From Escherichia coli (GTDB lineage Bacteria > Pseudomonadota > Gammaproteobacteria > Enterobacterales > Enterobacteriaceae), in the NCBI RefSeq assembly GCF_041248615.1, contig NZ_CP158426.1: a DNA stretch of 64,000 nucleotides; one strand, given 5' to 3'. Positions 22,317 to 25,300 of this stretch are shown piece after piece; the first letter of the stretch is position 1; each line of letters opens with the position of its first letter. Made by a program: the position numbers.

Positions 22317-25300
22317 TGATGGGCGGTATTCTGAAACGGCGATTGTCGTGAGAACAGAATGGTTGCACCAGAATACAGATATAAAAAAACCGACATGACA
22401 GTCGGTTTTTTTATTTTTTCCGCCCAAGACTTGGTGGTTCCGGGCAGAAATGAAACAGTCCTCATCTAGCAAGTGAATTATAAGTCAGGATGCCTACATA
22501 TTCAAACAGCTATGCTGGCGATACAATCCCGACGCTAGTAGTGATACTGCCTCAAGGGATTACCGCAGTGCGGAAAAGTACTTTTAAGTCCTGGTCAGGA
22601 TACAGGTGGTGCTGATTCTGGTGCTCTAATTTGGAGAGAGGCAGTCCTCATCTAGCACATGAAGAAAATCATAGTTACAGGCAACGTAAGGGTAAGCTGT
22701 GATTGTCTTTCTCCCTTAAGGGAGCAACGGATGAAAACTTTTCTCGATAAAGTTCTCATCGTTCTTAAGGCGCTAATCGCGCTGCTGGAACTGATCCGTC
22801 AGTTTATTGAATAACTGAGGAAACGTAGCTAAGGCCGAAGGTTTACCACCTTCGGCCTTTAAAAAAACCGACATGACAGTTGGTTTCATATTTATTGCCA
22901 AAATGCACACTGTTCATGCCAGATGCGGCGTAAACGCCTTATCCGGCCTACACAATCTTGCAAAATCAATATATTGCACGATCCTCGTAGGCCTGATAAG
23001 CGTAGCGCATCAGGCAATCTAACGCCTGTCATCACCCCGCAAACTGCCTGAACAGCGCCTTACCCTTAACCAGCCGCGCGCCCAGCCAGCCGCCGAAAAG
23101 CGACAGCAGCAGCGCACCGCTGCACGGCAGCACAATCCACAATCGCCAGTCTGGCTCCCACGGGAAATCAAACACTTTCGCCTGCAACACTGCCAGCGCC
23201 GTTTCCGCACCCATTGCGGCCACCAGGCCAGAAACAAACCCGAGCATGGCGAACTCACACCACAACGTGGTGCGCAGCAGTTTTTTCCCCGCACCGAGTG
23301 TGCGCCACACCACCAGCTCCTGATGACGCTGACGCATTCCCACCTGCACCTGTGCCAGCAACAGCAACATACCGCAGGCGGTGACCAGCACCACCATCAC
23401 CTCCAGCGCCCGACTTACCTGCTCCAGCACCTGGCCGACCTGTTTTAAAATCGCGCCAATGTCTAACAGGCTAATGGTCGGGAACTGGCGGTTGAGTTGC
23501 GTCAACATGCCGTTGCCATTCTCCCAGCGGAAACTGGTAAGCCAGCTCTGCGGTTGCCCGTCTAATGCCCCTTCAGGGAAAATAAAATAGAAATTAGGCC
23601 GCAGACTTTCCCAGTCAACTTTGCGCAGGCTGGTCACTTTAGCGCGGAACTCCTGGGTATCGCCCATAAAAGTCACAGTATCGCCGAGGGCAACGTTTAA
23701 GCGTTTCGCCAGCCCCTCTTCCATTGACACTTCATCGGCTTTTGGCGGCCAGTTACCGGCGACAATCGGATTATGATCGGGCCGCGTATTTTGCCAGGTA
23801 AGATTGAGTTCGCGGTTAAGCGCCTCATCTTCATTGCCTTCTGTCGGCTTGTCGTTAATCGCCGTCAGTCGCGCCCGCACCACCGGATAAAATGATTCCG
23901 GGACTATCTGATGTTCCGCGAGGAACGTTTTTAGCGGCGTAACCTGTTCTGTGGCGATGTTGATTAAAAAGTAGTTCGGGCTTTCTGGCGGCAGTTGTTG
24001 TTGCCAACGGTCAAGCAAATCGCCACGCAACACCAACAGCAATGCCAGCAGCATAAAGGAGAGCGAAAATGCCGAAAGCTGGCTTAACGTTGACCACGGC
24101 TGACGTAACAGGCGGCTAACCGCCAGGCGCAGAGGTAGCGATTTCAGCGTCATGCGGCGAAGTACATTCAGCAGCATCCAGCCCAGCACACCGCACAGCA
24201 AAGCCAGTACTACCGCGCCCGCCAGCACCGCCCAGAGCAGCATACTGCCCCCCATTAATCCGGCGAGCAGCAGCACAACCACCACACTGACAATCGGCAG
24301 ATAAAACTTGAGCGGCCAGACGTTCGCGACCACATCATTACGTAATACGCGTAAAGGCTGCGTTGCCAGCAACAAGCGGTACGGTCGTAGCCCCACCAGC
24401 AGCGAGATGACCGTCATGGTGCCCAGCGCCCATAGCCACGGCCAGAGGCTGGCAGGCGGTAGTGCAGCAGGCAAAACGGGCTTGAGCAGCACCATCAACA
24501 CGTTTTCGAACAACAGGCCTATCGCCCCGCCGGTAACGGCTGAAAGCGTCAGCACCATCAACCACTGACCGACGATTAGCTTACGCAGTTGCGCTCGCCC
24601 TGCCCCCAGCGTTTTGAGGATCGCCACAAGATCGTAGCGACTGCGACAGTAATGATTCATCGCCACCGCCACCGCTGCCACTGCCAGCAGCAAGGTCAGA
24701 AGCGCCGAAAGCAGCAGGAACTGTTGCGAGCGTTCCATCGAGCGCCCCAGCGCGCCTTCGTCCTGTTCCAGACCGTACCAGCGTTGTTCGGGTTTAAGCT
24801 GAGGTAACAACCATTTCTCATAGCTGTCGAGCTGGTTCTCGTTGCCGCCGAATTTATAGCGCCAGGTGACCCGACTCCCCGGCTGCACGGCTCCGGTTTT
24901 ATCGACATCCGCCAGATTCATCATCAGACGCGGAGCCATCTGGAAGGGGTTAAAACCGGAATCCGGTTCCTGAATCACTTCTCCGGCAATCCGCAAGGTG
25001 GCATCGCCCACGTCAATGGTGTCGCCCGTTTTTAGGTTAAGCAGTGCCATCAGGCGTGGGGCCAGCAATACGCTGCCCGCCTGCGGTTTCAGGCCAGGGG
25101 GATTAGTTTGCAGATCGCCATACATCGGGTAGATATCATCCACCGCTTTGACGTTCGCCAGCTGCGGTGTGTCGCCTGCAAATGTCATGGTGGCGAAAGT
25201 CAGCTGCTTGCCGACTTTCAGGCCGCGCTTTTGCGCTTCCTCCAGCCACGCTTGCGGCACTTCGCGCGAACTGCGCAACGCCCGATCGCCCGCCATAAAC

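Follow-up and report, generated by a model that had tools for sequence, protein, structure and literature searches.

The window analysed here is a 64,000-nucleotide (nt) stretch of an Escherichia coli chromosome (NCBI RefSeq assembly GCF_041248615.1, contig NZ_CP158426.1). In this window, a spacer of 712 base pairs (bp) lies between mnmH (21225-22319, + strand) and ybbP (23032-25446, - strand), and positions 22381-22862 within the spacer very probably form a complete type I toxin-antitoxin module of the DinQ/AgrB family, a second chromosomal dinQ paralog whose mechanism is likely to be that of dinQ in E. coli K-12 and of dqlB on plasmid pOXA-48. The predicted plus-strand messenger RNA (mRNA) of approximately 330 nt is composed of a structured 5' untranslated region (5'UTR) of 197 nt, a 27-codon open reading frame (ORF) encoding a hydrophobic peptide with one helix, and a strong stem-loop at the 3' end. 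The predicted minus-strand product is a divergent AgrB-like small RNA (sRNA) of around 89 nt with a near-consensus promoter. Observed at the locus are the family membership of the peptide and of the sRNA, colinearity with the K-12 locus, the RNA elements and their covariation, constraint on the 27 codons, and the absence of a LexA operator. The features are listed below, where SD is the Shine-Dalgarno sequence and D1 and D2 are direct repeats.

22381-22469, - strand: AgrB-family small antisense RNA gene, labelled 'AgrW' (Rfam RF02891 AgrB)
22477-22505, - strand: sigma-70-like promoter of the sRNA, TTGAAT, 17-nt spacer, TATAAT (10 of 12 consensus matches)
22522-22527, + strand: putative -10 of the toxin mRNA promoter, TACAAT (aligns under the -10 of K-12 dinQ and of the plasmid dqlB genes)
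22534-22730, + strand: toxin-mRNA 5'UTR, long and structured (colinear with that of K-12 dinQ)
22534-22538 with 22652-22656, + strand: a/a' pair, GCUAG with CUAGC (K-12 equivalent GUUAG/CUAAC)
22546-22553, + strand: core of element 1, ACUGCCUC, in the 5'UTR
22632-22647, + strand: element 2, overlapping the sRNA target core (element mapping from PMC5066626)
22638-22655, + strand: sRNA target core, predicted 18-bp uninterrupted helix with sRNA nt 1-18 (D2 repeat, duplex calculations)
22700-22715, + strand: element 3, whose predicted partner is element 2 in the open state and the SD in the closed state
22711-22724, + strand: SD stem-loop, CUCCC-UUAA-GGGAG, perfect palindrome CTCCCTTAAGGGAG (kept in 16 of 16 loci)
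22726-22763, + strand: helix of the start-codon region, AACGGAUG at 22726-22733 with CAUCGUU at 22757-22763 inside the ORF (RNAalifold columns 221-228 with 252-258)
22731-22814, + strand: DinQ-family toxin ORF, ATG to TAA, 27 codons, MKTFLDKVLIVLKALIALLELIRQFIE (NCBIfam NF041472, RefSeq coding sequence, third-position bias)
22831-22859, + strand: 3' stem-loop, toxin-mRNA terminator, perfect stem of 12 bp closed by a 5-nt loop (covariation of the homologous helix across all 16 loci)
22860-22899, strand not applicable: degenerate second copy (83%) of the 40-nt sRNA terminator region (D1, spacing 478)

A preliminary description of this DNA had reported the 27-codon ORF, the palindrome and the 12-bp hairpin, all of which are present at 22731-22814, 22711-22724 and 22831-22859, respectively, and had interpreted them as a type I toxin-like mRNA. 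Two curated sources support this interpretation and indicate a DinQ-family toxin. The NCBIfam model NF041472 ("toxin_DinQ") scores 40.9 bits against the peptide, with a cut-off of 30, and RefSeq, through the Prokaryotic Genome Annotation Pipeline (PGAP), annotates the identical 84-nt coding sequence as dinQ in loci that are 100% identical, calling the form of 27 amino acids (aa). Public protein collections list both the exact 27-aa sequence and an extended version of 51 aa as dinQ, on more than 1000 contigs. The peptide had been likened to the TisB/ZorO type. It does belong to a type I toxin family, but that family is DinQ/AgrB: at E <= 1 the peptide is matched by the DinQ and DqlB protein models only and by none for TisB or ZorO, and the Rfam family OrzO-P scores 24.1 bits against a gathering threshold of 60, which gives no model membership. 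The DqlB model NF041473, which describes a 31-aa peptide with an AVAALANA insertion, scores 24.5 bits, below its cut-off of 35. None of the PADLOC defence models matches any family peptide.

The reading frame is conserved outside E. coli. Over the 27 codons, the differences from two Serratia homologs fall on the three codon positions as [3,0,9] and [3,1,8], corresponding to five synonymous and five conservative replacement codons. This bias towards the third position supports a 27-aa product. The SD GGGAG (22720-22724) lies 6 nt upstream of the ATG at 22731.

On the opposite strand, the Rfam model RF02891 AgrB matches positions 22381-22469 over all of its 84 positions with 53.6 bits (gathering threshold 40). 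'AgrW' begins with an antisense segment at its 5' end, continues with a middle hairpin and ends in an A7-stem-T7 terminator; it folds at -33.9 kcal/mol (z = -4.9). The proposal that a partial upstream duplication encodes an antisense RNA is borne out by the location of the 22-nt direct repeat D2 (22456-22477 and 22642-22663, 91% identical), since the upstream copy lies at the 5' end of this putative sRNA gene. The sRNA is encoded divergently, has no overlap with the ORF, and is predicted to act in trans, at a 5'UTR site some 75 nt upstream of the SD. From the position of its promoter, it probably starts at about 22469-22470, and the Rfam match begins 7 nt past the -10. The TACAAT at 22522-22527 is the probable -10 of the toxin promoter, back to back with that of the sRNA. 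There is one Agr gene at the locus, in the position of K-12 agrA. The alignment with K-12 agrA-dinQ is colinear from the sRNA terminator through the toxin terminator, with 78% column identity, and the blocks GGTGGTGC, GTGCTCT, GGAG, ACAGGCA, GTAAGC, CTGGAACTGATCCG and GGAAACGTA..TAAGG are invariant between this locus and three plasmid dqlB loci.

When about 100,000 species genomes were scanned for two of the invariant blocks, 42 loci were obtained. Approximately half are genuine Enterobacterales members of the family; the others, discarded here, match by chance within long ORFs of unrelated genes (Arthrobacter, Bacteroidetes and others). The peptides separate into four subgroups: canonical DinQ (Escherichia, Pantoea, Serratia, Erwinia), the window type (Escherichia sp. 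E1V33, identical; Serratia oryzae, VKTLIDKVLIVLKALVALLELIRQFID; Serratia sp. H1w, METFIDKVLIVLKALVALLELIRRFIDR), the MGAFIDKAI type (Cedecea, Photorhabdus, Citrobacter) and DqlB. A divergent upstream sRNA of the AgrB family accompanies essentially all genuine loci. Within the set L016, L017, L039 and L010, dinQ-family loci identical to those of E. coli or Citrobacter were seen in assemblies labelled as a Lachnospiraceae metagenome-assembled genome, 'uncultured bacterium' and Chryseobacterium sp. 18061, and a plasmid-type dqlB locus on a Haemophilus sputorum contig. Family loci under such out-of-place labels, that of H. sputorum included, are probably contamination or plasmid carry-over.

Structure of the 5' untranslated region

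The primary transcript of K-12 dinQ is inert, with element 1 paired to element 2 and element 3 locking the SD (element 4) in a hairpin; when the first 44 nt are missing, elements 2 and 3 pair and the SD opens, and AgrB, by binding element 2, closes the SD again and brings about cleavage by RNase III (PMC5066626). This mechanism has been established experimentally for K-12 dinQ (PMC3567139, PMC5066626) and for dqlB/agrB (PMC12365149). The four-element 5'UTR of the DinQ/AgrB family, with its 1:2, 2:3 and 3:4 pairings and SD stem-loop, is also found here, as judged from the sequence. The 1:2 duplex (22533-22574 with 22618-22657) has a calculated energy of -29.9 kcal/mol, against -34.4 in K-12. 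The 2:3 duplex (22632-22647 with 22700-22715) has 14 contiguous pairs and -22.2 kcal/mol, against -19.3 in K-12, and the SD hairpin has -7.0 kcal/mol, against -6.2 for the K-12 CUCCAU-CGC-AUGGAG.

Taken alone, the SD hairpin is statistically ordinary: its 36-nt context folds at -10.0 kcal/mol (z = -1.6), and 14 of 200 shuffles are as stable. It is significant because it is conserved in the family, not because of its stability. RNAalifold was applied to a 16-sequence family alignment, covering the SD stem-loop, stem-loops SL2 and SL4, the terminator and the start-codon helix, and the palindrome thought to occlude the SD corresponds to the conserved SD stem-loop of all 16 loci, which favours occlusion. 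The 3' hairpin is exceptional in its own right (-20.7 kcal/mol, z = -5.2, none of 200 shuffles as stable), and the SL2, SL4 and terminator helices covary across the 16 loci. Family-wide, pairing in the 2:3 helix amounts to 86.5%, whereas sliding the partner gives 42-65%, and its covariation of 0.302 (<= 0.18 slid) was reached by none of 500 shuffles. Compared with K-12, the SD stem has changed from CUCCAU/AUGGAG to CUCCC/GGGAG, an A-U to C-G exchange that is the sole fully compensatory change in this stem among the 16 loci. Compensatory changes relative to K-12 are also seen at the fifth 2:3 pair (U-A to A-U) and in a/a' (GUUAG/CUAAC to GCUAG/CUAGC), the latter supporting a probable transcription start near G22534, downstream of the TACAAT -10. 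In the start-codon helix, one pair is GC in 13 loci, CG in two and AU in one, with compensatory changes in other loci, and this helix may add an extra layer of translational occlusion.

Following the K-12 scheme, the full-length mRNA would be translationally inert, the pairing of element 1 with element 2 leaving element 3 free to lock the SD in CUCCC/GGGAG. Removal of the 5' end would free element 2 to pair with element 3, and the SD would open. The 5' end of the sRNA would then pair with element 2, re-closing the SD and forming a substrate for RNase III. Homology and covariation together suggest that the locus is transcribed, processed, toxic and repressed in this way.

Antitoxin pairing and conservation of the module

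The module is found in a minority of E. coli. Among 5,426 complete genomes, 1,329 (about 24%) have the 712-bp spacer with the module, and each carrier also has canonical dinQ. The mnmH-ybbP site has at least three alleles: the module spacer, a 58-bp spacer as in UTI89 (L003 9121-9178), and an Rhs element with ylbG remnants, of EDL933 and K-12 types (L004 12121-18217). In all non-carriers, the sequence departs from that of the window no more than about 15 nt past the mnmH stop codon, and the 58-bp spacer or the Rhs element follows; a simple empty site with a single copy of the 40-nt repeat was not found among them. Escherichia sp. E1V33, which has window-type and canonical dinQ loci (L037, L038) in one genome, carries the module at the same site with only 2 differences in the 482 nt of 22381-22862, none of them in the sRNA or the 5'UTR, whereas the flanking allS, mnmH and ybbP differ by 3.3-5.8%. 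Such a near-frozen module would reflect either strong constraint or recent recombinational spread. The Serratia homologs are in unrelated gene contexts, suggesting that the module moves between intergenic sites.

For 18 family sRNAs, a pairing matrix of sRNA nt 1-36 against every 5'UTR was calculated. The cognate 5'UTR is the best target for 14 of the 18, typically at -55 to -67 kcal/mol with a margin of 10-20 kcal/mol, a pattern that indicates strong co-evolution of each sRNA with the neighbouring 5'UTR. The first 14 nt of 'AgrW' are the reverse complement of CAGTCCTCATCTAG (22642-22655). Where near-perfect complementarity of about 31-35 nt would be expected for the family, this locus has the perfect 14-nt core, the 18-bp helix and 34 nt of imperfect pairing.

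Several points weigh against a fully working module. Over 34 nt, the duplex of 'AgrW' and its target has 21 Watson-Crick pairs, 6 G-U pairs and 7 mismatches, the poorest base match of the 18 pairs. Its energy is -46.0 kcal/mol; a weaker value is seen only for the plasmid pair of H. sputorum (-42.7), and the energy is close to that of K-12 AgrA with dinQ (-44.4), a non-repressing pair, as AgrA does not repress dinQ in vitro (PMC5066626). In pOXA-48 dqlB/agrB, a 4-nt mismatch abolished antitoxin activity (PMC12365149). The putative toxin promoter has a weak -35, and a promoter scan made no call there; about three quarters of E. coli genomes are without the module. Furthermore, an in-silico 5'-truncation scan found the SD paired at nearly every 5' end and never opened, although in the K-12 control the known +1/+44 switch came out only weakly (0.05, rising to 0.35-0.39 at +25 to +41, yet 0.10 at +45), and the scan is weighed neither way.

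All of these points could be accommodated by a silenced or decaying relic, in which an AgrA-like sRNA no longer works, the SD hairpin, the S1 lock and a weak promoter are all that silence the toxin, in cis, and the whole is inert. The same could be said of an SD hairpin slightly stronger than that of K-12 and of the lack of preference of 'AgrW' for its own target (-46.0 kcal/mol, against -47.5 with the S. oryzae mRNA). We consider a relic unlikely, however. The ORF is intact, is annotated in more than 1000 genomes and has a codon bias resembling that left by purifying selection. All RNA elements are intact, and their changes are compensatory and not disruptive. The module is nearly identical between lineages whose flanks differ by 3-6%. 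Within the duplex itself, G-U pairs account for six of the 13 non-Watson-Crick positions and so keep the pairing, and the 5' helix is uninterrupted for 18 bp, against 8 bp for AgrA.

It is likewise doubtful, with about the same small weight, that the antitoxin arm alone has become functionally looser. On this view, a type I toxin would be conserved with its control mostly in cis, through a doubly locked mRNA and with no SOS input, while the Agr-like RNA would act as a weak or adjustable brake or would have acquired other targets, among them possibly the resident dinQ by cross-talk (-41.9 kcal/mol). A complete DinQ/AgrB module remains our preferred reading.

Concerning AgrA of K-12 (L002 2064-2145), its calculated pairing is stronger with the dinQ 5'UTRs of E. 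albertii (-56.6 kcal/mol) and Escherichia sp. E1V33 (-55.9 kcal/mol) than with that of K-12 (-44.4 kcal/mol). AgrA may therefore keep the ancestral antitoxin sequence, with K-12 dinQ having co-evolved with AgrB.

SOS control, the sRNA gene, the reading frame and the module flanks

The name given by PGAP and the match to an NCBIfam 'equivalog' would make this gene a true ortholog of damage-inducible dinQ, SOS-induced through LexA. This is highly improbable. No CTG-N10-CAG core is present in 22300-23050, which includes the intergenic region, the best 20-mer matches the LexA consensus at 11 of 20 positions (15 of 20 in K-12), and the position of the K-12 LexA box aligns to a gap and mismatches. 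Among family loci, a promoter LexA box is restricted to canonical Escherichia dinQ and is not seen in the window type or in the other subgroups. Carriers have canonical dinQ between arsR and gor as a separate locus, and NF041472 passes every non-DqlB subgroup, at 37-44 bits, against 54.0 bits for canonical DinQ. As the NCBIfam "DinQ equivalog" hidden Markov model spans paralogs, the RefSeq product name has been carried over to this copy, which is probably not SOS-induced given that it has no LexA box; "damage-inducible" is probably a misnomer here. The lack of a LexA operator, the mnmH-ybbP site and the single Agr gene likewise do not fit dinQ proper, of the SOS regulon.

There is an equally slim chance that the minus-strand AgrB match is merely a bidirectional mnmH terminator and that no sRNA is made. 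The terminator region of 'AgrW' is terminator-like on both strands and lies 62 nt past the mnmH stop; its A7-stem-T7 hairpin is symmetric and can thus terminate mnmH as well, and several unrelated sRNA models match it weakly. Nevertheless, the Rfam match is over threshold and extends through the middle hairpin and the 5' antisense segment to cover the whole model, a promoter with 10 of 12 consensus matches is in the correct position, and the same arrangement is found in family loci with unrelated flanking genes.

Least credible of all is that the real product is the 51-aa ORF that starts at ATG 22659 and encloses the 27-codon ORF, for although that frame is open here and also in Serratia sp. 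H1w, and 51-residue entries exist in many database records, its 24-codon extension is not conserved, is interrupted by three in-frame stops in S. oryzae and lies over RNA whose structure is conserved (SL4 and the SD stem-loop), no SD precedes 22659 while GGGAG is 6 nt ahead of ATG 22731, PGAP calls the 27-aa form, and in K-12 the equivalent 49-aa ORF is unused and a 27-aa peptide is made from an internal start (PMC3567139). Peptide variants within E. coli are rare singletons in both halves and are uninformative for this choice. One variant of the 51-aa form, protein P0003 (144 contigs), has R to L in the otherwise family-invariant ELIR and Q to L upstream, and this lineage may have an altered or inactivated toxin.

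The module is bracketed by a 40-nt direct repeat (22382-22421 and 22860-22899, 83% identical, spacing 478). The right-hand copy, at which the module ends on that side, is probably what is left of a further Agr gene, truncated to its 3' end; its resemblance to an Agr-gene stump suggests an earlier tandem array of Agr-toxin units. In Citrobacter amalonaticus (L040), one dqlB gene has three Agr copies around it (7078-7165, 7194-7281 and 7749-7836). From about 22903 onwards the sequence is again homologous to the UTI89 spacer. Further towards ybbP, outside the module, positions 22912-23022 contain palindromic elements of the repetitive extragenic palindromic/bacterial interspersed mosaic element (REP/BIME) type, because of which the full spacer matches tens of sites per genome. 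In the same region, an Rfam ES036 match (22952-22994) is barely over threshold and naRNA4-like matches are under threshold. Elsewhere in the window, the enterobacterial sRNA STnc480 of Rfam matches at 9293-9359 (- strand) with 84.9 bits (gathering threshold 72).

Comparison with known systems

The main value of the analysis is to confirm and correct an annotation, and the picture of the family is unchanged. The module is a rediscovery of a known kind and in practice a known gene, as its ORF is routinely annotated. Beyond annotation, the locus has no LexA box, a single Agr gene with a poorly matched target, and a place as one of three alleles of its site, and it is far better conserved than the sequences on either side. 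Two DinQ-family modules are thus present in about 24% of complete E. coli genomes, and they differ in transcriptional input and have sRNAs that are largely orthogonal. Since this module is highly conserved and its antitoxin duplex is markedly imperfect, it is a convenient test of how much complementarity the DinQ/AgrB mechanism needs.

The locus resembles tisB/istR-1 and zorO/orzO in its divergent, trans-acting sRNA that pairs in the 5'UTR away from the SD, and in the proposed inert primary transcript activated by 5' processing. TisB uses a ribosome standby site and not a four-element switch.

Chromosomal or plasmid dinQ-like (dql) genes of classes dqlA and dqlB, with conserved 5'UTR elements and sometimes alongside dinQ in one strain, have been described (PMC5066626), and dql antisense RNAs are predicted in T1TAdb (PMC8594479). 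The present locus fits this description exactly, being a dinQ homolog with the conserved 5'UTR elements that co-occurs with dinQ. As the peptide fails the DqlB model, it would be dqlA-like if named at all; NCBIfam contains no DqlA model. The peptide string had no match in a full-text literature search, and the locus may or may not be one of the 14 published dql genes (PMC5066626), dqlA examples included. With dqlB/agrB of pOXA-48 and of IncL/M, IncI1 and IncX plasmids (PMC12365149), it shares the same architecture and the same conserved RNA blocks, and for pOXA-48 toxicity, rescue by agrB and dependence on base pairing have been shown experimentally (PMC12365149). In contrast, dqlB is plasmid-borne, encodes a 31-aa peptide with a 4-residue insertion and has around 67% nucleotide identity to this locus, which is without the 21-nt insertion of dqlB; dqlB/agrB complementarity is near-perfect over 35 nt.

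The comparison with dinQ/agrAB of K-12, between arsR and gor (Weel-Sneve 2013, Kristiansen 2016), shows the closest correspondence in design. Both loci have a 27-aa peptide with the common core ALIALLELIR, an Agr sRNA encoded divergently upstream and antisense to the 5'UTR at its 5' end, and the same order of a/a', elements 1-4, SD stem-loop, start-codon helix and terminator. They differ in that the present copy is at the mnmH-ybbP site, has no LexA operators and has one Agr gene instead of two. Its peptide starts with ATG instead of GTG and has four extra N-terminal residues, a K in place of G in the hydrophobic core and a shorter charged C-terminus (RQFIE, against RFLLQLLN), and its sRNA-target duplex is much less perfect than that of K-12.

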